Assembly: GCA_964617525.1 (NCBI GenBank)
Contig: CAZTWG010000007.1
Coordinates: 1-15,045 of the forward strand
DNA length: 15,045 nucleotides
Direction of reading: 5' to 3'
Source of the DNA: an uncultured Gammaproteobacteria bacterium
GTDB taxonomy: Bacteria; Patescibacteriota; Patescibacteriia; UBA2591; UBA6264
Shown here: one piece after another, positions 1 to 15,045 of the stretch
Numbering within the stretch: position 1 is the first letter of the stretch
Layout: every line of letters starts with the position of its first letter
The notes under the pieces: model-generated
Database searches by the model: none
Seen by the model: only the letters and a program-made list of their open reading frames with translations
Told to the model about the DNA's origin: nothing
Translations under genes and position numbers: made by a program

Positions 1-53
1 ATATAAGGCATTCATATGATCTTTTGGCATAAAGATATTTTTTTTCTTGGTTT

Positions 54-1700
54 TCATATTTTTATTTTGTAAACAATTGCTTGTTCATCTTCGTAAACTT
101 TTTTTAAGTTTGTTGACCTTTTTAGCAATTTTACGAATTTTCCATCGTTTCTACATTTAGAAGCGATAATATATGAGGAGTTAAATCTTTCTTTAATCAC
201 TTTTGCTGTTTCATTTGGGTTTGTCTTCCCTGAAAATAAACTAAGCCAATCATCATAAAGTTTTTTATCATATTCATACATAAATGTTTGGTCTAAACCA
301 TTTATATAATAGTGACTATCGTCAAAGTAAAATAATTCCGGAAATATGTCCCAATTGCTATGGAATATTATTTCTTGGGGAGGAACATTGTTTTTAACCC
401 ATTGAGTTGCTCCCTGAAGGTGATTGACTGGGCGAGCTAAGCTCTGATAATTTTGTCTTGAATTATAAACTCCACGGATTAAATAGAAGCCAAGAAAAAA
501 AATGCAAACTGAACTTAATATGATTGTTGCAATAAAATAAAAATTATTTTCAGTTGAACGAAACAAACCTTTAATTTCCTTTTTAACTTTATCCCAGTTT
601 ATACTTTTTATAATCTGCGTAAATATTAATGCATTAAAAATAATGAGTGTAGGTGTTAGATATTCAATAATTCGGCGGGCTTTTAATGTATAGAATAAGA
701 AAAATAGAGATATAAAGAAGAAGAAGAATTCCTTTGTTTTTTGTTTTTTAATATAGACAATAAACCATGCAATTGAAATAATGTATGGCATCAAAAGTGG
801 TAAGGCATCAATGTAAAAATTAGATACTTTTGGCGCATACCATTCTGCGCCAACTCCAATTATATTTTGATAATTTAGGGCGGCAATTTTTATTGTTTGA
901 AACCAATAAAAAGGAAGTGTTTTTGGAAAATAGGGATTAATGATAAGCCCAGATAGCAGTCCGAATGTGCAAGCGCATAATAGTTTGTTGTTTGTTCTAC
1001 TAAAAAATAATTTTAAAAAAAGAGTGAATTTTATTGATTTTTTGTTAATTAATTTTTTTATAGCATATGAAAAACAATAAATAAGCACGCAAATAAACAT
1101 TAAAGGCCATCCCCCATAAAACCAAACGTAAAGAAGGGAAATTATAAAAACACCTAAATATTTTTTTTTGACAATAAGATAAAAACCTAAAATTAAAATA
1201 ACCAGAGAGAGCGCTGGACTCCGGCTAAGGGACATTCGATTTAAAAAATTCATTATAAGCAAACTGCTTAATGCCCAAAAAATAGGTATTTTAGCCTTAA
1301 ATCGGCGGAGTAACCAATAGATTGCTAAAATAGCTAGACCTGCGAAGAAAGCGCTAGCTAGCTTTACTTTCAGCAAGGGGTCTATTTGCGTAGATAGAGC
1401 GTCAAGATTTTTAGGAGTTGGAATGCTTAAAAATGGTAGAAGTAAAAAATGATATCCAAAATGATGGTCAACAAATAGATTTTTATAAGTGGTAAATTGA
1501 GTCCATGGGAAATTTTTAACAACACCGCTTTCTTTTATGAGTAGTGCCATTTTAGTATGATAAAATCCGTCGGGACATAGTAATGTCGGTGGAGCTAAAA
1601 CATAAAGAAAAATAATAAAAGCAATGGTGAATATTATAAAATAAAGCAACCATCGCCTTTTAGATATGGAATTATAAATTTTATAAACAAAGTTAAGCAT
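54..1700 (-). CDS. polytopic membrane protein, probable GT-C-fold glycosyltransferase (ArnT/PMT/STT3-like); family not resolved
   Basis: 548-aa ORF from the track, ATG at 1700, TGA stop at 54-56. By eye it has about 10 or more hydrophobic helices (e.g. WLLYFIIFTIAFIIFLYVL, LASAFFAGLAILAIYWLL, LVILILGFYLIV, FIISLLYVWFYGGWPLMFICVLIY, FFFFFISLFFLFY, FYFIATIILSSVCIFFLGFYLI). An acidic/aromatic motif PDGFYH sits right after TM1, where GT-C enzymes carry their catalytic Asp loop. The C-terminal ~130 aa look soluble. The function is inferred from architecture, not from a recognised signature. Confidence 0.6.
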   Translation of the reverse strand: MLNFVYKIYNSISKRRWLLYFIIFTIAFIIFLYVLAPPTLLCPDGFYHTKMALLIKESGVVKNFPWTQFTTYKNLFVDHHFGYHFLLLPFLSIPTPKNLDALSTQIDPLLKVKLASAFFAGLAILAIYWLLRRFKAKIPIFWALSSLLIMNFLNRMSLSRSPALSLVILILGFYLIVKKKYLGVFIISLLYVWFYGGWPLMFICVLIYCFSYAIKKLINKKSIKFTLFLKLFFSRTNNKLLCACTFGLLSGLIINPYFPKTLPFYWFQTIKIAALNYQNIIGVGAEWYAPKVSNFYIDALPLLMPYIISIAWFIVYIKKQKTKEFFFFFISLFFLFYTLKARRIIEYLTPTLIIFNALIFTQIIKSINWDKVKKEIKGLFRSTENNFYFIATIILSSVCIFFLGFYLIRGVYNSRQNYQSLARPVNHLQGATQWVKNNVPPQEIIFHSNWDIFPELFYFDDSHYYINGLDQTFMYEYDKKLYDDWLSLFSGKTNPNETAKVIKERFNSSYIIASKCRNDGKFVKLLKRSTNLKKVYEDEQAIVYKIKI

Positions 1701-1758
1701 TACTTCATTTTATCATTAACATTTTACTTTGTCTATTTAAAATGTTAATATACTATAT

Positions 1759-2481
1759 ATGAGTGGACATTCTAAATGGTCAAAAGTAAAACATTCTAAG
1801 GGGGCTTTAGATGCCAAAAGAAGTGCCTTGTTTACCAAACTCGGCCAAGCTATTATTATTGCAGCTAGAGAGGGTGGTGGTGATTTAGATTCTAACTTTA
1901 AACTTCGTTTAGTTGTAGAGAGAGCAAAAAAGGCAAATTTACCCAAAGATAATATAGAAAGAGCAATTAAAAGAGGTACGGGAGAAATAAAAGGCAAGAA
2001 GATAGAGGAAATAACCTATGAGGCATTTGGGCCTGGAGGCACTGCTTTTATTGTAGAAGTCTTAACAGATAACAAAAACAGGATTGCCACTAGTCTTAGA
2101 ATTATTTTCAACAAACATGGAGGGAGCTTGGCTGGCAAAAATTCAGTTCTTTGGATGTTTAATCGTTTAGGGGTTATTCGTATAAACTCTGATTTGATTG
2201 AAAAAAACAAGGAGGAGTGGCAATTAAAGATTATTGAGTCAGGCGCAGAAGATTTTAAAGAAGATGGGCGGGAATTGGTTATCTATACAAGTCTTAATAA
2301 TTTACAAAAGCTTAAGGAAGTTGTTGAAAAAGATGGGTTAGAAACAGAAAGCGTGGGAATAGAATGGATAGCGAAAGAATTAATCAGCATTGATGAATCT
2401 AAGAGACAAAAGGTTGCCACTATTTTCGAAGAACTGGAAAATGACCCTGATGTTCAAGACTATTATACCAACATTAGATAG
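1759..2481 (+). CDS. yebC: YebC/PmpR family DNA-binding transcriptional regulator
   Basis: 240-aa ORF. The N-terminus MSGHSKWSKVKHSKGALDAKRSALFTKLGQAIIIAAREGGGD...NFKLRLVVERAKKANLPKDNIERAIKRGTGE is the hallmark YebC/TACO1 signature. It lies directly upstream of ruvC, the conserved synteny. TAG stop. Confidence 0.95.
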   Translation: MSGHSKWSKVKHSKGALDAKRSALFTKLGQAIIIAAREGGGDLDSNFKLRLVVERAKKANLPKDNIERAIKRGTGEIKGKKIEEITYEAFGPGGTAFIVEVLTDNKNRIATSLRIIFNKHGGSLAGKNSVLWMFNRLGVIRINSDLIEKNKEEWQLKIIESGAEDFKEDGRELVIYTSLNNLQKLKEVVEKDGLETESVGIEWIAKELISIDESKRQKVATIFEELENDPDVQDYYTNIR

Positions 2482-2534
2482 AAATTATTAGAATATGGAA
2501 TGAAAATTCCTAATACCCAAATGATAAAAGTGAA

Positions 2535-2614
2535 AATTGCTGGTTGCTGATTGTTTAAAAATCCACAAATAGCTAGCAATTGATAACAGCAATCAATAAT
2601 TAACAATTGGTCAA
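2535..2614. repeat. intergenic repeat element, copy 1 (TTG/CAAT-rich, self-complementary)
   Basis: Block 1, TTGCTGATTGTTTAAAAATCC (2544-2564), matches 7137-7156 with one substitution and one T indel. Block 2, AATAATTAACAATT (2595-2608), matches 7181-7194 at 13/14 positions. Block 1 starts 63 nt after the yebC stop. The element is followed by a T/G-rich tract (2615-2660). Confidence 0.6.
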
Positions 2615-2665
2615 TTTAGTTTTGTTGTGTTGTTCTGTTAATTTGTTTAAATGTTTTAATATTTT

Positions 2666-3178
2666 ATGATTATTCTAGGAGTTGACCCAGGGTACGCGAT
2701 TACTGGATATGCTATTATTGATGTTGATGCTCAAACTAAACTAATATCTTTGCTCGATTATGGGTGTATTTTATCTTCCTCTAAAGATATTTTTTCTAAA
2801 AGATTATTAATTGTTTACGAGAAGATTAAAGAGATAATAGAAAAATATAATCCAGACAAGATAGCTGTAGAAAGTATTTTTTTTGCCAAGAATGTTAAGA
2901 CTGCTATTAAGGTTAGCCAAGCTAGAGGGGTTATTGTTTTGGCAGCTGCGATTAAAGATATTGAGGTTTTGGATTTTACTCCTTTACAAGTCAAGCAAGC
3001 TTTAACTGGCTATGGCAGGGCTTCTAAAAGTCAAATTCAACAAATGGTGAAAAATGTTTTGAAACTAAAAAGTATTCCACGTCCAGATGATGCCGCCGAT
3101 GCGTTGGCTATCGCACTTACTTGCGCGCAGACAAAGTCATGGGAACATAAGAACAAGTTGAAGCTACCTGGGGACTGA
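2666..3178 (+). CDS. ruvC: crossover junction endodeoxyribonuclease RuvC (Holliday junction resolvase)
   Basis: 170-aa ORF. MIILGVDPGYAITGYAII carries the first catalytic Asp, AVESIFF the catalytic Glu, and PDDAADALAIAL the C-terminal acidic pair. Length is typical. TGA stop at 3176-3178. Confidence 0.95.
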   Translation: MIILGVDPGYAITGYAIIDVDAQTKLISLLDYGCILSSSKDIFSKRLLIVYEKIKEIIEKYNPDKIAVESIFFAKNVKTAIKVSQARGVIVLAAAIKDIEVLDFTPLQVKQALTGYGRASKSQIQQMVKNVLKLKSIPRPDDAADALAIALTCAQTKSWEHKNKLKLPGD

Positions 3179-3225
3179 GTTCCTAAGCAATAAATGTTTG
3201 GACGCTCAGTGTTTAAACAAATGAG

Positions 3226-3254
3226 AAAAATACAGGGAAACCTGTATTTTTTTT
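3226..3254. terminator. bidirectional Rho-independent terminator between convergent ruvC and the LysM-CHAP gene
   Basis: AAAAA-TACAGG-GAAA-CCTGTA-TTTTTTTT. The 6-bp core stem (3231-3236 / 3241-3246) has a GAAA tetraloop, an A5 run upstream and a T8 run downstream. It therefore reads as a hairpin plus U-tract on both strands. It lies in the 141-nt gap between two convergent stops. Confidence 0.65.
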
Positions 3255-3319
3255 ACTTGGGGGCCGAGTTTTCAATTAGATTATTTTTTTATGCTCTGAT
3301 GTTATTATACTCTCACGCT

Positions 3320-4543
3320 CTAACGCTTTGGATATATGTACCCTACTATTTGCCATCTACCTTGAGACGTGCTTTGCCACGCAGTTGTTCTTTTTAATCT
3401 TCTGGTAACTGGTTTTTGTGTCCAACTTGGATTTGACGGGCCGTTCATTTCCGAGAAATAAACATAGTCATTGTCAAATTTTTCTATATAAGCGACATGT
3501 CCATACCAATTATTACATCTCAAAACCACTATTGACCCTTCGTCGCCCTTGTTTAGAGTTAATCCTGTTCTGAACCCATCGTTTCTAGCGTTTTGTAGCC
3601 ATGTTCTAGCATTTCCCCAATTATTTGGACCTACACATTGACCCAATTCAGTCGCCCATTTATAGGCCACCCAATCAGTGCATTGTCCTGGTTTCGTGTA
3701 GTAACGTTTACATGATGCACAACAACGTTTATATCTCCAATCTGTATAACTACAATTACTTTTTTCAGTGGCTGTAGATAGAGAGGTTGTTGCTCTTGGT
3801 TTGTAAACTGGTTTTAATTTTGGCAAAGGTGAGGCTTCAGGGATAATTAGTGTTTCCCCTACTTGTAAATTATCGGGATTAATAAGGTTGTTAAATTCAA
3901 TTATTTTTTCGCTATCTGCTTTGTATTTTTTTGCAATTTGCAAAAGTTTTTCGTCCTTTTTTATTTTATGTAAAATTCCATCTACGGGTAGAATTATTAA
4001 TTTGTCTCCAGGTTGAATATTGGCTCGCCAATAAGTTAAATCATTTGCCCAAAGTATGGTCCAAACACTTAGGCCGAATTTTTCAGCAATATTCCAAGGA
4101 TTATCATTAGGTTTGACTATATAGTATTCAATTTTAGTTCTGGTGGGTAAAATATTTTTATTGACTTCATTGTTGGAAGCAACTAAAGCAGTATTATTTA
4201 AGGTTAGCGGAATTTCAGATGGAGCCCCTTCTTCTCTTAATAGAGTGGCGATTTGGAAATCATGATTTTCTTCCTCTAAATCTTGCTCAGAGGAGATTAT
4301 ATCTAAATGAATGTTTTCGTTAGTATCTTCGGAAAAAATAATATTATTACTTTGATTTATTGTTTGAGAGTAAGAAAATAACACAAAAAATAAAACAGCC
4401 ATGATGATAGGCAGTTGTTTTCCTGGTTGTAATTTTTTAAAGGTTTTAGATAGAAAATGTCCAAAATAAATAACACGAAGAATGCTTCCCTTTAAAGCTT
4501 TGATACTATGCCTGACAATTTGTCGTAATAGTTTATCTTGCAT
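3320..4543 (-). CDS. membrane-anchored/secreted peptidoglycan hydrolase: 2x LysM + C-terminal CHAP amidase/peptidase domain
   Basis: 407-aa ORF. There is an N-terminal hydrophobic anchor (LPIIMAVLFFVLFSYS). Two LysM repeats are present: YYIVKPNDNPWNIAEKFGLSVWTILWANDL...IQPGDKLIILP and LHKIKKDEKLLQIAKKYKADSEKIIEFNNL...LQVGETLIIP. The CHAP signature has the catalytic Cys in GQCTDWVAYKW and the His in YGHVAYIE. TAG stop at 3320-3322. Confidence 0.85.
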   Translation of the reverse strand: MQDKLLRQIVRHSIKALKGSILRVIYFGHFLSKTFKKLQPGKQLPIIMAVLFFVLFSYSQTINQSNNIIFSEDTNENIHLDIISSEQDLEEENHDFQIATLLREEGAPSEIPLTLNNTALVASNNEVNKNILPTRTKIEYYIVKPNDNPWNIAEKFGLSVWTILWANDLTYWRANIQPGDKLIILPVDGILHKIKKDEKLLQIAKKYKADSEKIIEFNNLINPDNLQVGETLIIPEASPLPKLKPVYKPRATTSLSTATEKSNCSYTDWRYKRCCASCKRYYTKPGQCTDWVAYKWATELGQCVGPNNWGNARTWLQNARNDGFRTGLTLNKGDEGSIVVLRCNNWYGHVAYIEKFDNDYVYFSEMNGPSNPSWTQKPVTRRLKRTTAWQSTSQGRWQIVGYIYPKR

Positions 4544-4603
4544 AAAACGATTTTTTTTTGTATGATAATAATTATTATGCCTAAAATTGTAAAAAAATCA
4601 AGT

Positions 4604-7072
4604 ATGAGTTATCAACATCTGAATTTAAACGCGAAATGGTTTAAAATTTGGGATAAGTTGGGGGTTTATCACACATCAGAACAAACAGACCAAGAAAAAA
4701 AGTATATTTTAGTTGAATTTCCTTATCCATCTGGGGATGGTTTACATCTTGGGCATGCTTTTGCTTTTGTTGGAGCTGATATTTATGCGCGCTTTCAAAG
4801 AATGCAAGGGAAAAGAGTACTTTTCCCCATGGGTTGGGATGCCTTTGGTTTGCCAACTGAAAATTATGCCATTAAGACCAAAGCTAATCCTCGTCAAATA
4901 ACTAAAAAGAATACGAATAGATTTAAAGACCAGATGAAAGAACTGCAACTTTCATTTGACTGGGAGATAGAAGTCAACACCACTGACCCTGATTATTATA
5001 AATGGACTCAGTGGATTTTTGTTGAATTATTCAAAAGGGGATTAACATACAAAAAGGAAATGCCTATTAATTGGTGTCCTAAATGTAAAATAGGGTTAGC
5101 TAACGAAGAGGTAGTGAATAATAAATGTGAAAGATGCGGAGCTGAAGTTTCGCGTAGAAATATTTCTCAGTGGATTGTAAGGATTACAGATTACGCAGAC
5201 AGATTAATCGATGGTTTATCTCAAACAGATTTTATCAAAAAAGTTAGAACAGCGCAGATAAATTGGATTGGGAAAAGTAATGGGGCGGAAGTTATCTTTA
5301 AAATTAAAACTAACAGAAAAGAAGAGGATTTAAAAATATTTACAACTCGTCCAGATACATTATGGGGAGCGACTTTTATGGTTTTAGCCCCAGAACATCC
5401 TTTGATTAATAAATTTTTAGATAGCGATTCTATTAATTCTACTATTAAAGAAAAAATAAAAGAGTATATAACTAAAAGCAAAAATAAATCCGATTTAGAA
5501 AGAACAGATTTAGCTAAAGAAAAAACAGGAGTTTTTAGTGGATTTTATGCAATTAATCCTGTAAATAGTAAGGAAATTCCTATTTGGATATCTGATTTTG
5601 TTTTAATTTCATATGGGACTGGAGCTATTATGTCTGTTCCTGCTCATGACCAAAGGGATTGGGAGTTTGCTCAAAAATTTGGTTTAGAGATAATTCCCGT
5701 AATTCAACCTTCAACGAATTGGGATTTTAAAAAATGTGCTTATACCGATATTTCAAACGGAAAAATTGTAAATTCTGAACCAATTAATGGTTTGAGCCCA
5801 GACGATGCTTTTGAAAAAATGATCAATTGGTTGGAAGAGAAAAAGATAGGTAAAAGAGCTAAAAATTATCATTTAAGGGATTGGATTTTTTCTCGTCAAC
5901 ATTATTGGGGTGAACCAATTCCAATGATTTATTGTCCTAAATGTGGATGGCAACCCGTTAAAGAAGAAGACCTGCCCATAAAACTTCCAGAGATAGAACA
6001 TTATGAACCAACCAATACAGGAGAAAGCCCTTTGGCTGAAATTGAAGAATGGGTTAAAACTGTTTGTCCTAAATGTGGAGGTCCAGCGAAAAGAGAAACA
6101 GATACTATGCCGAATTGGGCGGGTTCAGATTGGTATTTTTTAAGATATACTGACCCCAAGAATAAAAAGATGTTAGCTAGCAAAGAAAAAATGAAAAAAT
6201 GGCTTCCAGTTGATATTTATATTGGAGGAGATGAACATAATACTCTTCATCTTCTATATTCTCGTTTTATTTATCAATTTCTATGGGACATCAATGTTGT
6301 GCCAAAAGAGAATCTAGAGCCATATCAAAAAAGAGTGTCTCATGGAGTAATTCTTGGCCCAGATAACCAAAGGATGAGTAAATCTAAAGGTAATGGGATT
6401 GCCCCAGAAGAAGTAATAGGAAGGTTTGATAAATATGGGTCAGATATTTTAAGAATGTATCTAATGTTTATTGGACCCTTTGAGGGAACTATGGCATGGA
6501 ATGACCAAGCGCTAATGGGTATAAAAAGATTTTTGGAAAAAATAGAGGATTATATTGATTCTTGGACATCTTCCCAAAAAGAGCATCCAGAAGCAATACA
6601 TAATAATGATATAAAACCTTTACTACATCAAACAATAAAAAAAGTAACTGAAGATATTAAAAATTTAAGATATAATACAGCTATTGCTTGTTTAATGGAA
6701 TTTTTAAATAAAATAAAAGCAAAAAAGGGTAAGATAAACCAAGATGATCTTGAAATTTTTCTTGTTCTTTTATCCCCATTTGTCCCTGTTTTTAGTGAGG
6801 AGCAGTTACAAAAAATTGATTCGTCAGTACAAAGTATTTTTTTGAAATCTTGGCCAAGGTTTGATTGTCAGTTGGCTAAAAATAAAAAAATTGAATTTGT
6901 TGTGCAGGTTAATGGTAGAATTAGGGGTAGGTTTAAGACTAAAATTGGGCTTTCCCAGGAACAAGCTGAAAAAAATGTTTCTTCAATGCCTCAAATCCAG
7001 AAATATTTACAAGGAAAAGAAATTAAAAAAGTAATTTTTATCCCTGACAAATTAATTAATATGGTTATTTGA
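4604..7072 (+). CDS. leuS: leucine--tRNA ligase (LeuRS)
   Basis: The HIGH motif (HLGHAF), KMSKS motif (RMSKSKGN), CP1 editing-domain start (TTRPDTLWGATFMVLAPEHP) and two CxxC...CxxC zinc knuckles are all present. The track ORF begins at 4538 and would overlap the divergent 4543 start. I place the start at ATG 4604 (MSYQHLNLNAKWFKIW), which gives the usual spacing from Met to the conserved KW..W. ATG 4577 is an alternative. TGA stop at 7070-7072. Confidence 0.92.
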   Translation: MSYQHLNLNAKWFKIWDKLGVYHTSEQTDQEKKYILVEFPYPSGDGLHLGHAFAFVGADIYARFQRMQGKRVLFPMGWDAFGLPTENYAIKTKANPRQITKKNTNRFKDQMKELQLSFDWEIEVNTTDPDYYKWTQWIFVELFKRGLTYKKEMPINWCPKCKIGLANEEVVNNKCERCGAEVSRRNISQWIVRITDYADRLIDGLSQTDFIKKVRTAQINWIGKSNGAEVIFKIKTNRKEEDLKIFTTRPDTLWGATFMVLAPEHPLINKFLDSDSINSTIKEKIKEYITKSKNKSDLERTDLAKEKTGVFSGFYAINPVNSKEIPIWISDFVLISYGTGAIMSVPAHDQRDWEFAQKFGLEIIPVIQPSTNWDFKKCAYTDISNGKIVNSEPINGLSPDDAFEKMINWLEEKKIGKRAKNYHLRDWIFSRQHYWGEPIPMIYCPKCGWQPVKEEDLPIKLPEIEHYEPTNTGESPLAEIEEWVKTVCPKCGGPAKRETDTMPNWAGSDWYFLRYTDPKNKKMLASKEKMKKWLPVDIYIGGDEHNTLHLLYSRFIYQFLWDINVVPKENLEPYQKRVSHGVILGPDNQRMSKSKGNGIAPEEVIGRFDKYGSDILRMYLMFIGPFEGTMAWNDQALMGIKRFLEKIEDYIDSWTSSQKEHPEAIHNNDIKPLLHQTIKKVTEDIKNLRYNTAIACLMEFLNKIKAKKGKINQDDLEIFLVLLSPFVPVFSEEQLQKIDSSVQSIFLKSWPRFDCQLAKNKKIEFVVQVNGRIRGRFKTKIGLSQEQAEKNVSSMPQIQKYLQGKEIKKVIFIPDKLINMVI

Positions 7073-7134
7073 TTATTAATGAGTCAGAACACTATATAAC
7101 GAACAAAAATATTAATGCTTAGATATCAAACCAG

Positions 7135-7196
7135 AATTGTTGATTGTTAAAAATCCGAAAGCAGTCAACAATCGACAACTAATAATCAACAATTAA
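7135..7196. repeat. intergenic repeat element, copy 2 (hairpin with two alternative 3' partners)
   Basis: TTGTTGATTGTT (7137-7148) pairs with AACAATCGACAA (7167-7178). This is 12 bp with one G-U wobble on the + strand RNA, and the 18-nt loop is AAAAATCCGAAAGCAGTC. Alternatively AATTGTTGATT (7135-7145) is a perfect complement of AATCAACAATT (7184-7194). Blocks 1 and 2 are shared with 2544-2564 and 2595-2608. Block 1 starts 65 nt after the leuS stop. Confidence 0.6.
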
Positions 7197-7223
7197 TTTG
7201 CGTTGCGTATTTTATATATAATA

Positions 7224-8129
7224 ATGAGTGTTCTAAAAGAAACTAAATCTACTTGCAAGCAGTATAATTTTGTCCCTTTGCGTCGTCGGGGGCAAAATTT
7301 TTTAATTAATCCTAAGATTATTGAACGGATTATAGATGTAGCTAAGATAGATAGGGAAGATATTATTCTAGAAATAGGTCCAGGTCTAGGAGCGTTAACA
7401 GAAGAAATTGTTAACAAATGCAAAAAAATAATTGTAGTTGAAATTGACCAAAAGTTAGCCCAGATATTGAAAGAGCGTTTAAGAAAACATAAGAATATAG
7501 AAATAGTTAGAGCTAGTATTTTAGATGGGATTCCAGACTTGAGTCTAAAAGGAAAGAAATATAAGGTAGTGGCTAGCTTGCCTTTTAATATTGTTGGTAG
7601 AATTTTAAGAATTTTAATGACAGAGAAAGATAAATTAGAATCAATTGTAGTGGTGGTTCAAAAAGAAGTTGCTCAAAGGATAATTGCTCAACCTCCCTAT
7701 ATGTCTCTTTTGTCTTTATCAATCCAATTTTATAGCCGAGTAAATGTTGTTTTTGATATTAATAGAAGTAATTTTTGGCCACAACCTAGAGTAGATTCAA
7801 CTGTGCTAAAAATAGAGCCAAAAGAATGTAAGGTTAAAAAAGAAATTGAAAATAATTTTTTCCGACTTATTAAAGCTGGCTTTTCTTCTAAGCGGAAATA
7901 TTTACTTAACAATTTATCTAAAAATGTTATAATGCAGGATATAAAATACAAAAAACAAAAAACAAACAATAAAAAACAAACAATAATTAATAATCAAATG
8001 AATTATTTTATCCCCGGAAAAAAAGAATTTTTTTTAAATATTTTTAGAGAAATTGGGTTGAATGAAAAAGTTAGAGCGCAAGAATTATCAATTGAACAAT
8101 GGATACAACTTGCGAGCAAAATAAATTAA
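7224..8129 (+). CDS. rsmA: 16S rRNA (adenine1518/1519-N6)-dimethyltransferase RsmA/KsgA
   Basis: RRRGQNFLINPKIIERIIDVA plus the SAM-binding ILEIGPGLGALTEEI motif, and the C-terminal RAQELSIEQW helix. The track ORF starts at TTG 7203. The first ATG (7224, MSVLKE...) is the more likely start. The gene contains a K/N/Q-rich insertion of about 35 aa before the C-terminal helix. Confidence 0.9.
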   Translation: MSVLKETKSTCKQYNFVPLRRRGQNFLINPKIIERIIDVAKIDREDIILEIGPGLGALTEEIVNKCKKIIVVEIDQKLAQILKERLRKHKNIEIVRASILDGIPDLSLKGKKYKVVASLPFNIVGRILRILMTEKDKLESIVVVVQKEVAQRIIAQPPYMSLLSLSIQFYSRVNVVFDINRSNFWPQPRVDSTVLKIEPKECKVKKEIENNFFRLIKAGFSSKRKYLLNNLSKNVIMQDIKYKKQKTNNKKQTIINNQMNYFIPGKKEFFLNIFREIGLNEKVRAQELSIEQWIQLASKIN

Positions 8130-8139
8130 TTTAAAATAT

Positions 8140-8832
8140 ATGCCTAATAAATCTAAAATTTTGTCATTATCTTTTTTGTCAGCGCTGTCTTTGTTTATCT
8201 TGGTTTTAGGTTTTTTACAGATTAGGGGAACGATTTATGGTCCGTTTAGAGGTTTTAAAAAATCTAATACAGAGAAAAAAATGACATTAACGCAAGAAGA
8301 GATTTTATCTGTTTTGTCAGAACAGGCTAAACAAGAAGACACGGACAAAGACGGTCTTTCTGATTATGACGAAGTTTATGTCCATAAAACATCTCCATAT
8401 ATTGAAGATTCTGATAGCGACGCTTTCTCTGATGCAGAGGAGGTAGAAGCTGGTAGTGACCCATTAAATTCTTTTTCAACGCCTTATCGTCAGGGCAAGG
8501 ATACAGAAAGCAATTTATCAGAAGATTCTATGCCTCAAGTTACTGAGAACGAACAATTTTCCTCAGAAGATATTCGAAATTTTTTAATTCAAGCGGGAAT
8601 AGATAAAGAAATTCTAGACAATATTGATGACAATGAGTTGAAAAAGTTATATAATAATACTAAAGAAGAAACAGGAATTGACCCGCAGGATTTAGGGTTG
8701 CCATCTTCTCCTGAGGTTGATATTTCTTTATTAAGGCAATCTCTGATAGATGAAGGAGTTGATGCTTTGATGTTAGAACAAATAGATGATGATACGTTAA
8801 AAGCAATGTTTTTGGAAAACTTAAAATATTAA
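8140..8832 (+). CDS. membrane-anchored acidic protein with thrombospondin type-3-like Ca-binding repeats and a duplicated C-terminal helical motif
   Basis: 230-aa ORF starting 10 nt after rsmA. The N-terminal anchor/signal is ILSLSFLSALSLFILVLGFL. It carries TSP3-like repeats and two copies of a ~26-aa motif at a 53-aa offset. TAA stop at 8830-8832, only 3 nt before the giant ORF's ATG. Confidence 0.8.
   Translation: MPNKSKILSLSFLSALSLFILVLGFLQIRGTIYGPFRGFKKSNTEKKMTLTQEEILSVLSEQAKQEDTDKDGLSDYDEVYVHKTSPYIEDSDSDAFSDAEEVEAGSDPLNSFSTPYRQGKDTESNLSEDSMPQVTENEQFSSEDIRNFLIQAGIDKEILDNIDDNELKKLYNNTKEETGIDPQDLGLPSSPEVDISLLRQSLIDEGVDALMLEQIDDDTLKAMFLENLKY
8338..8469 (+). other. thrombospondin type-3-like calcium-binding repeat region (protein domain)
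   Basis: DTDKDGLSDYDEVYVHKTSPYIEDSDSDAFSDAEEVEAGSDPLN follows the bacterial TSP3 pattern D-x-D-x-D-G-x-x-D-x-x-E ... G-[ST]-D-P-x-N. This match is from my memory of the family consensus. Confidence 0.65.
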
Positions 8833-8835
8833 AAC

Positions 8836-8943
8836 ATGAAGTTTAAGAAATTAAATAATATTTTTACGAAAGGAGCAATTTCATCAATAATGCTTATATT
8901 AATTGTTTCTTCTTTTTTGTTTTTACCTGGAAGGGCTCAAGCT
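8836..8943 (+). other. Sec-type signal peptide of the giant protein
   Basis: MKFKKLNNIFTKGAISSIMLILIVSSFLFLPGRAQA|QF has a Lys-rich n-region, a ~16-residue hydrophobic core, and an A-x-A (AQA) cleavage motif. Confidence 0.75.
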
Positions 8944-11900
8944 CAATTTATTGTTAATGATACAGTTAAGACCGTTCGGGATGCAGTTAAATGGGCATGG
9001 GATAAAGGTGGGGCTGTTGCTTATAGAAACTCTTTAAATTTTTTCTTACAACAAGCCGCCAAACAATCTGGTGAATGGCTAGCAACTGGTGATGTAGGCA
9101 AAAAACCAGCATTTTTAACTGATCCAGATTTTTATAAAAAAGCGGGAGACCAAATGTTGGGAGAATTTGTTGATTCTGTGGCGGGTAATTTTTTGGGGCA
9201 GAGTCTTTGCGATACCTTAGATCCAACGGTCAAATTTAATATGTTAGCGACATTAGACCCAAATTATAACAAAATGAAATGGGCAAAAGAGCCAAAATGT
9301 TCTTTTACTCAGATTAAAAAGAATCTTAAAGATGCTAGCAAAAAGAAACTATTTGAATTTTCTGCTGACGTGAAAGAAGGAAAAGTTGCGAAACAGCGCT
9401 CTAGTATTAGCACCATAATCCAAGGTGATCCAATTCTAACTGAAGGGATGAAACATATTTTAGATGGTAAATTGGATATTTGTCCTGGGGATGGCAAAGA
9501 TGTTTTGCAATGTCCTGCAGGAGCGATTAATTGTGGGTTAGGAAATGTTTTTTATTTCTACGAAGAAGGTTATATAGGAGTTGGAGCTCAATTACATAAA
9601 TATACTAATGAATTTGAGGATATTTTGTCAGCCCTAAGGCATGATGAAAAAGTTATAGAACTTGCTCCAGGTGAAGAGGCGCCTGAATTAGATCCAAAAG
9701 CCCCTATAAACCAGACAGCAGCTGCCGCTTTTAAAGATTTAAAGAAAAAATTAGACCCAAAGGAAACAACGGCAAGTATAAGTATATGGGGGGACGGAAC
9801 TGGAGTTGGTTTAAATACGTTAGGTTTAAAATATTTAAATAAAACGAGTTCAGAATGTTCTAGGAAGAGCCCAAGTGATGTGTGTGATGAAAATAAATGT
9901 GTTCTTATATGTGATATTGGTGGAGCTGATTTATGTAAAGCTTCAGAAGAATCTAAATCAGAATGCTATAATCGTATCAAAAGAGTTAATAAATATACAA
10001 AGCAATTAATAGAATGGGCGACGACTCTTTATGATATGATAACTCAGGTTACTGAGAATTGGGAGGCACAACAAGGTATGCCTGACTTGGATCCATTAGA
10101 AGATGCTAGTAATATGTTCAATCCAGAAAGTAATCCTATGGGTATACAGATGGAGTTAAAAAGCAAATTATTTGAAAAACAGACGGATGCGATTGAAAAG
10201 AGTAAAACTTTCAGAGATATCCAAGGCTCAATGAATGCAGTGACCTCAAAAGTTTCTGGCATCGTTAAGCTACCTTCTACTTTTGTGAATGAAAAGGCGC
10301 GAGAATCTGTAAAAGCCGGGACAGCTAGTTTTAATACTTATACGGGCGTGGCTTTAGCTGATGCTCTCGGAGTTTTTGTCAATACTTTTTTAACTCAATA
10401 TGCTAAAGTTTTTATTGAAGGGCTTAACCCTGCTGCTGACAGTAGTAGGGTTACTACTACTAGCGATGAGGACGAAACACCAAATCCAGACACAACATCT
10501 ATTTTAAGCGATATAAAAGTAATTCCTATTAATCAAAGCAGTAATGAAATGACAATTTACGATGAATTCGCGGTTTGTCCTACCGGAACTGACCAAAAGT
10601 ATAAATCTCAATTTAATTGTTTGTTAGACAATAAATTAGCTCGGGCAGTAGAAGAAAGAATGACCATTCAAGAAGCTATGGCAAATGGTCTTCTTAATCA
10701 GGATGAACGTTTGGGTATACGTGGAGACAAAAGCGGTTTGCTATCAAAGAATCATATTCAAAAATTACGGCTGATTGGCATTCTGCCCTTAGGTGCGCAA
10801 ATTGCTAGTGAAATAATTATGGAAGGGCCACATACTAGTAGTGGAGTGACCTTGTCTGACGTAGTAGATGGATTTGACAAAAGGGGAGAAGATGGCATTT
10901 GTGGCACTTCTGACACGGGAGAAAGTGAATTTTGTAATTTAGTTGACCCTAACTGGGTTTTGAAAGCTCCTAGTTATTTGTGTGAAATAACAGGTTATTC
11001 GGCTGTTCCTTTGCGTGATAGTTCTTTTCGCCAAGAATCCTGTTTAGATTTAAAAACATGTATTAACGAGACAGAAAGCAATCAATGTGATACTTGGTCC
11101 TATTGCACTCGCGAAAAGAATGTTTGGCGCTTTGGAGGCAATGAATGTGATTCTCAGTATAATACCTGCACTTCCTATGTTCAAAAGAGTAGTAAAGAGA
11201 TTTCTTCTTATCTTTCCAATACTTTAGATTTTGATAATTGTAGCGCTAGTAACGTGGGCTGTAAGTGGTATTGTTCAAGGTGGGACCAAACATATTCAGG
11301 AGTAGGTGGTGATTGGGCTTGCACGTCTCCTGGTTGGCGGCAATATACTTGTTATTTAGGAGACGTATGTAATGCTTCTAATGGGTGTGACTGTGCTTGT
11401 GACGGAGATAATGGTTGCCCAGATGGTTTGGGGAATTGTTTGGTTGCAATGGGGGGGATTTCTTGCTCTTTGGAGATGCCAGAATTAAGAAATGTAGCCT
11501 TTTTCAGTGACCAGATTAAGGAATGCCAAGAGTCTAACGAGGGCTGTTCTCAATATATTAGAACTAAGCCAGGGATGGGAGTTAACTTTTTGTCTAACGG
11601 AAGCTTTGAGTTGCCTTCTAAAGATGAGGATATTCCTATTGGTTGGCAGGTCAATGGTCCAGTCCAGCAGATTACTCCTTTATCTAGAGCACAAAATGGT
11701 AGCAATGTGGTGCAGATTCAAAATACTGAAACAGCAGTGGATTGCCAATTAAGTCAGTCTATTTATAACATCCCATCGCAAGGCGATTTCGTAGTCTCTG
11801 GATATTATAGGAGGAATGATACTGTGTCCTCTAGTCCTAATATGAAGGTGCAAATTTGCTACGATAATAATTGTTCTGACAAAGATGAAATAGTATCTCC

Positions 11901-14900
11901 GATTGATTTTAATGATAATAACTGGAAATATGTTTCTGTATCCTTATCTTCTGATAAAGAAAAAATTATTGACCATATTGAGGTTTTTGCTTTTGATTCT
12001 CCTAGTTTTACTGGCAATGTTTATGTTGACACAATGCAACTTAGAAACGAACCCATGAATTCATCTTACAGAGAATATGGTTCTAAGGGAATTACTTATT
12101 TAAAAAGTGCTATGGGGTGGATGAATTGCTATGATAGCGACGAAAATAATGATGATGTTGATTGTGAAAATTTTGTTCAAAAGTGTAGTCTAGAAAATGT
12201 TGGTTGCGAGCTTTATTCTCCTGTTGATAATAATATGTCTGATATCCCAGCGTTGGTTAATGATTCAGATTTATGTCCTTACTCTTGTGTTGGTTATGAA
12301 ACTTTCGAAGAAATGCCTACGAATTTTGAGAATAATCAGGACAAGAGATTAGTTCATTTAATCCCGTCAACAGCTCAAAAGTGTTCTGCCCCTGGTTGTG
12401 AGGAGTTTACGAATCTAGACGCAGTTTCTGACGGAGGTGAGGGCAGAGAATATTATACATATTTACGCCAATGCATTAAAACTAATGCTCAGGGCATGGC
12501 AATTGTGAATTCTTCTGGCAACCAAATCTCTCCTGCTTCAGCTGATACTTGTCAGTATTATTATACTTGGGTTGGAGAAGATACAAGTGGGTACCAACTA
12601 AAAAAATATTATTTAGAAGCTGATTCATCTTTGGGAGGACCAGCTCAAGTTAGTCAAAATCCAAATTCAGAGTGGGGGTTGTGCGACGAAGATAATTTAG
12701 ACAATCCTCATTGTAGACAGTTTTATGATGCTATGGGCAACGTTTATTATCGTCTCTACAAAAACACTACTACATGTTCAACGGATTGTAGCCCGTATCG
12801 TCGGGTAATAGACAACTCGATTGAAATGGCGATTGGCGCGGAGGCGGAAGTGTGTAATGCCAGTGATATGGGTTGTAGGGAGTATAAAGGGTCTACTTAT
12901 GGAAATATAAAAAATCTATTTTTAGATAAATTTATTTCTAGTTCTGAACCATGGGAAAATGTTGAAATTAGTTATGAATCAATTAGCTATTTGGGTAATT
13001 CAATAAAAGCAAACGCTAATCTTGCCAAAAGGCCAGTAGATGGTTTGGTTCAAAAGGGAAAGGCTTACTCTCTATCTCTCTGGGTTAAAGGTAGTGGAAA
13101 CTATATAGCTTCTTTCGGAAATGATTTGTATTTTATCACGAGTGAACCTCATAACATTTCAGTTACTTCTAATGATTGGCAGGAAATAAGATTTGGTTCA
13201 ATTTATTTTAATAGAAATCCAGAGAATGATGAAAAATTAATAATTCAAGGCCCAAATCAATTTTATTTAGACAACATTACTCTTAATGAAATTCAAGATA
13301 ATGTTTATTTAATTAAGGATTCTTGGAATACTCCAGAGGTATGCGATATTGACGATGAGGGAAATGTATCGTTGGGCTATATGCTTGGTTGCCAGGCATA
13401 TCGTGACAGATTCCAAGACGCTCATTATCTAAAGTCATTTAGCAATCTTTGTCCAGAAAAAGAAGTTGGGTGCGAAGCTATGATTGATACCCAGAATTCA
13501 ACTTCTCCTTTTAGTGAGGAATTCAATAGCGGGTCTCCTCAGGGAGATGAAATTATTATTCCATCTGATAACTTAATTTATAGAGTTTATGATACAAGCA
13601 AGAGCTGTCTGCCAGAAGATAAAGGATGCCAAAGATTTGGTTTGCCCGAACTTGATTCTAACCAAGAAGCAATTGATTTCACAGATGTTTATTTGTTAAA
13701 TAATCCGGATTTATATAAATTGCAATCTACCTTATGCGATATAGAGGGAGAGGGATGTCAAGAATATGAAGGACAAGTATATTTTAAGGAGCCGACTGAT
13801 AATGTCTGTGAATATCGTGAAAATGTTTTTGTTGGCGGAGAAAACAAAAATGGTTGGTTTAAAAAAGGAACTAAAAATCCTTGCTATACAGAGAACGGTT
13901 TTGCCTATCAACCATATGGGTCAGTTTATGGCATTCGCACAAATAAAGATTCTTTATATGAAGGAATTGTAGGTATTTGTCCTGAAAGTCAGAATGGATG
14001 CACTCGGTTTATCAATCCAGTTGAACAAAATTTAGTTTTAAACGGTGGTTTTGAATTAGATAAGAATGAGGATAATATTCCTGATGGCTGGACTCCATAC
14101 GCTGACCCTGAAAACTCATTTTCGTTAGTAACAGATGGTTGTTTAAGTGGTAGTTGTTGGAGAGTTAATCAATCCATGGATATGGATTCTTTTTCAGCTG
14201 GCAGGCAGTATATAAAAATACAGCCAGGTTCTACTTATGAACTTTCAGCTTGGATAAAGGCAACAGATGATTCTTCTGGTAACAGCAAAATTTATCTTGC
14301 TTATACTGATAGCACGTCCTATAGTGGCCCTACTTGGCCATGGGGCATTATTATTTCTGAACAAAAAGGGTCTACGGACGGAAAATGGATAAAACATACT
14401 GTTACATTGAAAGCTCCTACAGATGCAGTGTATGCTAGCATTTTAGCTCCTTACGTTAATGGTGGTAAGGTGGACATGATGATAGATAATATTTCCTTAA
14501 TAGAAAAGAATTCCCCTAAAGGCAGTTATTATTATTTGAGCGACGGAAATATAGATGAAACTTCTTGTAATGGAATGGTTGGAATAAAAGATGGCTGTGT
14601 ATTATTTAACAATACTTCCTTTTCGGGGAAGCAATATGATTCAGCTTACACTTACGCATTAAGCGAAGCTCAAGGAGATACTTCGGTCCCAGCACAAAGT
14701 GTTGTGAATCCTCAAAGTGACAATGAAGGAGATAGTAATGTAGTTCTTAAGGTAAGACGAGATAGGGTTTGTGGTGAATGGTTACAGTGTTCGGGATATC
14801 GTTCTGTTTGGGATAGTTCTATTGATGAATATCGTCCAGTTTGTGATTCATGGATTCGTTGTGACGAATTAATTGGCTCTGGCAAGCAAGCTCAGTGTGG

Positions 14901-15045
14901 ACATGTTGTTTCTAATCCCAATCCAAGCGTTTTAAACAAAAATGAATATATTAGTCGCGATGTCTCTTGGGCAGGAATGGATTATTCAGGTTATTCTCTG
15001 CCAAATATGTATCCTATAGAAAAATTATTCCCAAGCGAAGATAAC
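8836..15045 (+). CDS. giant secreted cysteine-rich multi-lectin-module surface protein, 3'-partial (>=2,070 aa, continues beyond window)
   Basis: I translated frame 1 by hand, codon by codon, from ATG 8836 to codon 15043-15045 and found no TAA, TAG or TGA. It is not in the supplied track, presumably because no stop lies inside the window. Only short antisense or out-of-frame ORFs are listed across this span. It has a Sec signal peptide, about 76 Cys, three CBM4/9-like modules and recurrent C-x5-G-C-x2-[YFM] motifs. Confidence 0.9.
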   Translation, partial: MKFKKLNNIFTKGAISSIMLILIVSSFLFLPGRAQAQFIVNDTVKTVRDAVKWAWDKGGAVAYRNSLNFFLQQAAKQSGEWLATGDVGKKPAFLTDPDFYKKAGDQMLGEFVDSVAGNFLGQSLCDTLDPTVKFNMLATLDPNYNKMKWAKEPKCSFTQIKKNLKDASKKKLFEFSADVKEGKVAKQRSSISTIIQGDPILTEGMKHILDGKLDICPGDGKDVLQCPAGAINCGLGNVFYFYEEGYIGVGAQLHKYTNEFEDILSALRHDEKVIELAPGEEAPELDPKAPINQTAAAAFKDLKKKLDPKETTASISIWGDGTGVGLNTLGLKYLNKTSSECSRKSPSDVCDENKCVLICDIGGADLCKASEESKSECYNRIKRVNKYTKQLIEWATTLYDMITQVTENWEAQQGMPDLDPLEDASNMFNPESNPMGIQMELKSKLFEKQTDAIEKSKTFRDIQGSMNAVTSKVSGIVKLPSTFVNEKARESVKAGTASFNTYTGVALADALGVFVNTFLTQYAKVFIEGLNPAADSSRVTTTSDEDETPNPDTTSILSDIKVIPINQSSNEMTIYDEFAVCPTGTDQKYKSQFNCLLDNKLARAVEERMTIQEAMANGLLNQDERLGIRGDKSGLLSKNHIQKLRLIGILPLGAQIASEIIMEGPHTSSGVTLSDVVDGFDKRGEDGICGTSDTGESEFCNLVDPNWVLKAPSYLCEITGYSAVPLRDSSFRQESCLDLKTCINETESNQCDTWSYCTREKNVWRFGGNECDSQYNTCTSYVQKSSKEISSYLSNTLDFDNCSASNVGCKWYCSRWDQTYSGVGGDWACTSPGWRQYTCYLGDVCNASNGCDCACDGDNGCPDGLGNCLVAMGGISCSLEMPELRNVAFFSDQIKECQESNEGCSQYIRTKPGMGVNFLSNGSFELPSKDEDIPIGWQVNGPVQQITPLSRAQNGSNVVQIQNTETAVDCQLSQSIYNIPSQGDFVVSGYYRRNDTVSSSPNMKVQICYDNNCSDKDEIVSPIDFNDNNWKYVSVSLSSDKEKIIDHIEVFAFDSPSFTGNVYVDTMQLRNEPMNSSYREYGSKGITYLKSAMGWMNCYDSDENNDDVDCENFVQKCSLENVGCELYSPVDNNMSDIPALVNDSDLCPYSCVGYETFEEMPTNFENNQDKRLVHLIPSTAQKCSAPGCEEFTNLDAVSDGGEGREYYTYLRQCIKTNAQGMAIVNSSGNQISPASADTCQYYYTWVGEDTSGYQLKKYYLEADSSLGGPAQVSQNPNSEWGLCDEDNLDNPHCRQFYDAMGNVYYRLYKNTTTCSTDCSPYRRVIDNSIEMAIGAEAEVCNASDMGCREYKGSTYGNIKNLFLDKFISSSEPWENVEISYESISYLGNSIKANANLAKRPVDGLVQKGKAYSLSLWVKGSGNYIASFGNDLYFITSEPHNISVTSNDWQEIRFGSIYFNRNPENDEKLIIQGPNQFYLDNITLNEIQDNVYLIKDSWNTPEVCDIDDEGNVSLGYMLGCQAYRDRFQDAHYLKSFSNLCPEKEVGCEAMIDTQNSTSPFSEEFNSGSPQGDEIIIPSDNLIYRVYDTSKSCLPEDKGCQRFGLPELDSNQEAIDFTDVYLLNNPDLYKLQSTLCDIEGEGCQEYEGQVYFKEPTDNVCEYRENVFVGGENKNGWFKKGTKNPCYTENGFAYQPYGSVYGIRTNKDSLYEGIVGICPESQNGCTRFINPVEQNLVLNGGFELDKNEDNIPDGWTPYADPENSFSLVTDGCLSGSCWRVNQSMDMDSFSAGRQYIKIQPGSTYELSAWIKATDDSSGNSKIYLAYTDSTSYSGPTWPWGIIISEQKGSTDGKWIKHTVTLKAPTDAVYASILAPYVNGGKVDMMIDNISLIEKNSPKGSYYYLSDGNIDETSCNGMVGIKDGCVLFNNTSFSGKQYDSAYTYALSEAQGDTSVPAQSVVNPQSDNEGDSNVVLKVRRDRVCGEWLQCSGYRSVWDSSIDEYRPVCDSWIRCDELIGSGKQAQCGHVVSNPNPSVLNKNEYISRDVSWAGMDYSGYSLPNMYPIEKLFPSEDN
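11581..12051 (+). other. CBM4/9-like (galactose-binding-like jelly-roll) module 1 of giant protein
   Basis: VNFLSNGSFE...IPIGWQVNG ... GDFVVSGYYRRN ... NNWKYVSVSL ... GNVYVDTMQL. It shows the family-typical N-x-x-x-N-G-x-F-E entry, the G-x-x-Y/F-x-x-S-x-[WY] strand, the central W and the closing [VY]-x-D-x-x-x-L strand. This match is from memory of PF02018-type domains. Confidence 0.6.
12913..13293 (+). other. CBM4/9-like module 2 (most diverged)
   Basis: NLFLDKFISSSEPWENV ... GKAYSLSLWVKGSG ... NDWQEIRFGS ... NQFYLDNITLNE. It keeps the same order of landmarks as modules 1 and 3 but lacks the NGxFE entry. Confidence 0.45.
14029..14508 (+). other. CBM4/9-like module 3 (best match)
   Basis: NLVLNGGFELDKNEDNIPDGWTPY ... 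GSTYELSAWIKATDD ... GKWIKHTVTLKAP ... GKVDMMIDNISLIE. Confidence 0.65.

Follow-up and report, generated by a model that had tools for sequence, protein, structure and literature searches.

Thanatin, a free 21-residue insect peptide, has a C-x6-C disulfide that closes the loop of a β-hairpin. In this study, we analyzed a recurrent Cys motif, C-x5-G-C-x2-[YFM], in a giant secreted protein encoded on a 15,045-nucleotide stretch of a low-GC bacterial chromosome (contig CAZTWG010000007.1, positions 1 to 15,045; hereafter, the window). As a structural analogy only, the motif shares with thanatin two Cys residues seven positions apart, a predicted 8-residue ring between antiparallel strands, and a Gly in the turn. 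The Gly of thanatin lies one position earlier and the flanking sequences are unrelated, whereas the present element occurs in at least 12 copies within a protein of about 2,750 aa.

Large extracellular Cys-rich proteins have been described in Peribacteria, a lineage of the candidate phyla radiation (CPR), where a 14-gene cluster encodes proteins with 7.2% Cys (PMC4736985). These proteins are weakly similar to the Cys-rich repeats of Myxococcus, and their high Cys content was proposed to provide rigidity and/or attachment (PMC4736985). By description, the window protein shares with them a very large size, a signal peptide, Cys-richness, and a lack of functional annotation (PMC4736985). However, they belong to another phylum, and the window protein contains only 3.7% Cys, has another motif, and carries CBM_4_9 domains. 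Three of its domains match the CBM_4_9 family (PF02018) of carbohydrate-binding modules (CBMs) and their fold matches CBM22, but the Cys motif lies outside these domains. PrgB of pCF10, an adhesin of a monoderm conjugative type IV secretion system (T4SS), is likewise large and exported, and its gene lies in a monoderm-type secretion cluster. A PrgB-like adhesin by homology was nevertheless rejected: the window protein matches no Pfam family except CBM_4_9, has none of the PrgB Pfam domains, and lacks a C-terminal hydrophobic segment that could serve as an anchor, leaving genomic location as the only similarity. Literature searches found no description of the motif or of the giant protein. We propose, with a probability of roughly 70%, that the motif copies form disulfide-closed loops bracing a giant extracellular protein of an undescribed Patescibacteria family; the bond is suggested by covariation between the Cys residues and by structure prediction.

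Cys motif and domain layout of the giant protein

The giant gene (8836..15045, + strand) begins at an ATG at position 8836 and continues past the window end. Frame +1 is uninterrupted from 8833 to 15045, residues are numbered from the frame start at 8833, and 2,070 aa of the protein lie within the window. An N-terminal signal peptide (MKFKK...FLFLPGRAQA; 8836..8943, + strand) was read from the sequence. It corresponds to the sole hydrophobic segment of a full-length ortholog (P0001), which has no C-terminal hydrophobic anchor. In the window protein, Cys-rich modules alternate with three CBM_4_9 jelly-roll domains, all encoded on the + strand. PF02018 matched the whole protein with 53.8 bits in three stretches (gathering cut-off, 25.9). 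Domain 1 (11584..12090, limits approximate) is a Pfam stretch that folds as a confident β-sandwich in the first of two AlphaFold models described below. Domain 2 (12907..13314, limits approximate) matches Pfam and the fold of CBM22 in the PDB with a target-normalized TM-score of 0.63, and domain 3 (14026..14505) is the best Pfam stretch, whose match covers residues 1731-1864.

The first-pass annotation had reported eight exact motif copies between nucleotides 11239 and 14010. A regular-expression scan (C.{5}GC.{2}[YFM]) of the frame +1 translation returned exactly these eight, all in this one open reading frame (ORF), and a scan of all six frames of the window, which allowed any of [YFMWLIV] at the last position, found the same eight and no others. 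The segments are 11 residues long and not 12 as originally given. They are, all on the + strand, CSASNVGCKWY (aa 803; 11239..11271), CQESNEGCSQY (aa 898; 11524..11556), CSLENVGCELY (aa 1118; 12184..12216), CNASDMGCREY (aa 1341; 12853..12885), CPEKEVGCEAM (aa 1540; 13450..13482), CLPEDKGCQRF (aa 1592; 13606..13638), CDIEGEGCQEY (aa 1635; 13735..13767), and CPESQNGCTRF (aa 1716; 13978..14010). The copies at 898, 1341, and 1716 stand immediately before CBM domains 1, 2, and 3, respectively. The copy at 1341 and the others within the second AlphaFold model were also located there.

At least three looser variants had also been claimed, and four are present on the + strand: CSAPGCEEF, with a short loop (aa 1184; 12382..12408); C-x15-C-QAY, with a long loop and seen in the sequence and in the homolog alignment (aa 1504-1523; 13342..13401); a second long-loop form, C-x9-C-VLF, CNGMVGIKDGCVLF (aa 1912-1925; 14566..14607); and CDSQYNTCTSY, a C-x6-C-x2-Y form in which Thr replaces Gly (aa 772-782; 11146..11178). 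The canonical loop occurs at loose sites in other homologs: site 1504 is a canonical C-x5-G-C in some of them (P0037 and P0063), and in distant homologs the loop at site 1184 has five residues, of which the last is Gly or Asn. On this alignment evidence, the loose variants are one and the same element, with residues inserted into or deleted from the loop.

Three kinds of shuffle ruled out chance or composition as the source of the motif. Among 20,000 shuffles of the whole protein, 98% contained no match, and 97.6% of 5,000 shuffles of the Cys-rich part (aa 690-2022; analytic expectation, 0.025) were also empty. When the Cys residues were held fixed and the remaining residues shuffled, 91% gave no match. 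The maximum in each case was two, so that the control proposed in the first-pass annotation never approached the real number: eight exact copies are observed against a chance expectation of about 0.02-0.1. The C-x6-C spacing alone occurs 11 times in aa 690-2022, a count reached by one of 5,000 shuffles. The motif is real, non-random, and strongly constrained.

Conservation and distribution of the family

A first set of 16 homologs comprised 13 full-length orthologs and three distant sequences. The orthologs have 2,708-2,940 aa and are 53-71% identical to the window ORF over 100% of its length, and those with names belong to Parcubacteria or Patescibacteria; the distant homologs show 25-35% identity. 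In the 17 sequences including the window protein, Cys was invariant at all 11 sites checked, distant homologs included. When the alignment of these 17 sequences was used for a further word-indexed search, it yielded no new homolog. Wider conservation was counted in 166 homologs, in which the motif copies occupy fixed, conserved positions. Cys is 90-99% conserved at the eight exact copies and at the variants 1184 (99%) and 1504, and 96-98% conserved at the variant at aa 772-782. Loop length at the eight exact sites is constant in 96-100% of homologs; 62-98% retain the Gly, and about 97-100% have a hydrophobic or aromatic residue at the +3 position. The full pattern is kept in 157 of 163 homologs at site 803 and in 162 of 166 at site 1540. 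A Cys-dense stretch at aa 830-878 (approximately 11320-11470; CDCACDGDNGCPDGLGNC) behaves differently: it aligns in about 30-55% of the family, its Cys residues are kept in about 13-24%, and it looks like a lineage-specific insertion.

The motif had been described as unassignable to EGF, TSP1, Kazal, or any bacterial Cys-repeat family, and the searches bear this out. A scan of the 2,070-aa protein against Pfam, which includes EGF, TSP1, Kazal, and others, returned only CBM_4_9 at E ≤1, and three full-length homologs gave CBM_4_9 or nothing at E ≤0.01. NCBIfam, which includes the Myxococcus cysteine-rich repeat, gave only NTTRR-F1, which lies in the CBM region and scored 18.7 bits against a cut-off of 70. 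The best match of the motif profile to PDB sequences had an E-value of 1.9, and the whole-family profile found only weak CBM matches there. Foldseek against the PDB confirmed the identity of the CBM domains and otherwise retrieved only jelly-roll CBMs and toxins containing them, although the CBM may have masked weaker matches of the Cys modules. A known Cys-rich domain was ruled out by these four kinds of search.

The first-pass annotation had also suggested building a hidden Markov model of the motif. We built a profile from 32-residue segments spanning the motif and compared it with 1.84 billion representative proteins. There were 1,104 matching proteins at E ≤0.001, of which 793 had E ≤1e-10. 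The best 150 of the 1,104 range in length from 856 to 3,852 aa, contain 7-11 matched stretches apiece, and are all homologous to the window protein over most of its length. Therefore, as far as these listed matches show, the motif is the signature of one large family and not a module common to several families. When 185,579 species genomes were scanned with a single 9-residue peptide pattern derived from the motif, 416 proved to encode a relative, and the informative titles among them are Patescibacteria lineages. Many loci with a relative (L003, L005, L006, and others) are titled "uncultured Gammaproteobacteria bacterium" (TPA, Third Party Annotation, assemblies), and many of these share p236- and TrbL_3-like neighbors with Patescibacteria-titled loci. 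The Gammaproteobacteria titles look like wrong or placeholder labels.

Predicted loop structure, Cys pairing, and alternatives

Two AlphaFold models were used. The first covered aa 785-1895 (1,111 aa), was built from 17 sequences, and served only for the CBM limits. The second covered aa 1090-1735, was built from 42 diverse homologs, and had a mean predicted local distance difference test (pLDDT) score of 78.6 and a predicted TM-score (pTM) of 0.63. In the second model, secondary structure assignment with DSSP gave the same arrangement at all six canonical sites covered: the first Cys, a three-residue helical turn with a single residue on either side of it, Gly, and the second Cys. At sites 1118, 1341, 1540, and 1592, a strand or bridge residue reaches the first Cys or ends close to it, and the second Cys either opens a new strand or is followed directly by one. 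Site 1341 is the clearest example (in model 2, strand 240-250, Cys251, turn, Cys258, strand; pLDDT ~93), and pLDDT is 81-93 in the blocks at 1118 (~81), 1341, and 1540 (~87) and lower at 1592, 1635, and 1716.

Pairing of the two Cys residues was examined by presence/absence correlation over all Cys columns of the 166 homologs, in which three motif sites were variable enough. The best covarying column of each variable motif Cys was its own partner (phi 0.92 for 898-905, 0.83 for 1912-1922, and 0.60 for 1716-1723). Losses were also mostly joint, with six double against one single loss at 898/905 and 14 double against six single losses at 1912/1922. No coupling to a second motif pair was found among all Cys columns. 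This covariation within sites favors a bond inside the motif and speaks against metal sites built from four Cys residues. Outside the motif, Cys 1240 and Cys 1315 (approximately 12550-12780), which are 75 residues apart, covary with phi 1.0, which suggests a long-range Cys pair inside module A.

Taken together, the sequence and model data outline how the element could work. A single giant secreted protein carries at least 12 copies of an element of about 11-25 residues. A β-strand would end at the first Cys, the five polar residues would fold into a tight loop containing a single helical turn, and the Gly would let the chain reverse. The second Cys would begin the next strand and thereby place a hydrophobic or aromatic side chain three residues on. 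A disulfide between Cys i and Cys i+7 would close an 8-residue ring, and loops locked in this way may stiffen a very long multi-module extracellular protein. The disulfide-stapled hairpin of the first-pass annotation is thus consistent with the signal peptide, Cys conservation, pairwise loss and covariation, and the modeled loop, while the bond itself is still deduced. Its further suggestion that the hairpin is a rivet between modules fits some copies only: 898, 1341, and 1716 precede a CBM_4_9 domain, and 1118 and 1540, with the variants 1504 and 1912, follow one, but copies 803, 1592, and 1635 and variant 1184 sit inside the Cys-rich modules.

Several observations weigh against disulfide-closed loops. 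The first AlphaFold model was confident only in the CBM domains, with pLDDT <50 in all Cys-rich parts, and in the second model sites 1635 and 1716 keep the Cys-turn-Gly-Cys loop in low-confidence parts. Total Cys counts of the homologs are not consistently even, and this mixed picture is uninformative. Many Patescibacteria live in anoxic water. A literature search for an oxidizing system of this organism gave nothing specific; the Dsb and VKOR genes themselves were not searched for.

The position of three copies directly before CBM domains raises the possibility that the motif is the conserved edge of a larger duplicated domain, such as an N-terminal extension of the CBM_4_9 jelly roll. Ten sites were compared pairwise by profile-profile alignment (hhalign), and the two top pairs were ignored as window-overlap artefacts. 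The similarity was longest for the three pre-CBM copies, which co-align over 33-42 columns running into the CBM (probabilities of 96.5% for 898/1716, 91% for 1341/1716, and 80% for 898/1341) and resemble duplicated motif-plus-CBM units. However, a CBM follows neither the variants nor five of the eight exact copies, and for the non-CBM copies the in-register similarity is mostly confined to 11-36 columns around the motif. In addition, the Pfam CBM_4_9 match begins after the motif, and CBM structures in the PDB match the jelly roll only. We therefore consider a larger domain unlikely. One long repeated domain was rejected, as similarity between sites is mostly limited to the motif except in the three motif-plus-CBM units; this limitation indicates a short recurrent element with some copies at module borders.

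The other alternatives assign the Cys residues a different chemistry. They could be metal ligands, with two motifs forming a Cys4 site or one pair acting together with nearby acidic residues. In favor of this, Glu, Asp, Asn, and Ser are abundant in the loops, the organisms probably live anaerobically, a setting in which extracellular disulfides are generally less expected, and the disulfide is itself a deduction. Against this, each motif has two Cys and no conserved His, C-x6-C is an unusual spacing for a metal knuckle, and the protein is exported. Moreover, the next-best covarying column reaches phi of at most 0.4 for 898/905, 0.46 for 1912/1922, and 0.48 for 1716/1723, and the losses of different pairs are uncoupled, which makes metal binding improbable. 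That the residues are free reactive thiols or modification sites, which would cross-link the protein to a partner or to a host surface, seems very doubtful. Nothing favors such a role directly; the Cys totals in homologs are sometimes odd, and from the gene context, contact of the protein with other cells appears probable. The strict i/i+7 spacing, the Gly before the second Cys, and the covariation within sites all point to partners inside the motif, and the model puts both Cys residues at the ends of one short loop.

Genomic context and possible role at the cell surface

The genes in the window are arranged in the order membrane protein (- strand), YebC, RuvC, LysM+CHAP hydrolase (- strand), LeuRS, KsgA, a 230-aa gene, and the giant ORF. 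The ortholog P0012 lies on a 658-kb contig, where the gene order is as in the window (L001 1-28367; window 1759-15045), and it is the single ortholog locus with Pfam-annotated neighbors. There, the giant gene is followed at its 3' side by TrbL_3 (VirB6-like), a pair of unknown genes, genes for a TraC-like protein and a VirB4-like ATPase, another two unknown genes, and T4SS_pilin, and four T4SS_pilin genes are present upstream, so that the giant gene lies inside a type IV secretion cluster. Neighbors were counted in 80 related loci that were kept, scoring only those with enough flanking sequence. Of the 52 loci scored on the downstream side, 51 have a TrbL_3 homolog there. Based on this proximity to TrbL_3 and on the position within the type IV secretion cluster at P0012, the giant protein is likely a surface or contact structure linked to the type IV secretion apparatus. 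The distant homolog P0015 from Uhrbacteria (3,506 aa; L083 10-10530) counts against such a link: it keeps the motif sites, and NusA, YidC, and chaperonin genes lie downstream with no TrbL. Linkage to secretion genes thus does not extend to the whole family.

The gene just upstream of the giant gene (8140..8832, + strand) encodes a 230-aa, strongly acidic protein that is membrane-anchored at its N-terminus and contains a TSP3_bac repeat of the calcium-binding type, identified by a Pfam match. It is 52% identical to the 236-aa product of the gene upstream of P0012. The 230-aa protein may be a partner of the giant protein, since its homolog adjoins the giant gene in 62 of 65 loci. Two other genes in the window concern the same neighborhood. 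The peptidoglycan hydrolase with LysM and CHAP domains (3320-4543, - strand) is conserved at the same position in the ortholog locus and could serve the secretion cluster as its VirB1-like enzyme for opening the wall. A polytopic membrane protein of 548 aa without a Pfam match (54-1700, - strand) stands where L001 has the four T4SS_pilin genes.

A 2025 survey of type IV secretion in Patescibacteria reports KsgA near virB4, states that no PrgB-like adhesin was detected in Patescibacteria, and cites a type IV secretion cluster as essential for epibiotic growth in one cultivated member (PMC12102498). The giant protein is not mentioned in the chromosomal-context section of that survey or in the passages retrieved from it by term searches (PMC12102498). 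Without a PrgB-like adhesin in the surveyed material, the role of adhesin appears vacant (PMC12102498). Because the secretion cluster is essential for epibiotic growth in one cultivated member and the survey detected no PrgB-like adhesin (PMC12102498), a conserved, exported, lectin-domain-bearing giant protein encoded beside a VirB6 gene is a candidate for the host-contact part. We tentatively suggest, as a possibility that is less likely to hold than to fail, that the giant protein is a dedicated extracellular part of the Patescibacteria T4SS, possibly the missing adhesin or contact stalk, which would bind host glycans and position the channel during episymbiosis. Both the stabilizing role of the disulfide and the link to secretion or adhesion are inferred.

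Large Cys-rich extracellular proteins of CPR bacteria (PMC4736985) and disulfide-stapled hairpins as a structural device were already known. The motif alone is a modest structural finding, and the protein family is of higher interest than the motif. One 9-residue pattern is sufficient to retrieve 416 species genomes and provides a simple, highly specific signature, and the motif marks a widespread family of giant Patescibacteria proteins whose members still carry only hypothetical-protein annotations. Patescibacteria are dependent on their host cells. If the proposed structure is true, disulfide-closed loops would make a long fiber mechanically resistant and resistant to proteases.

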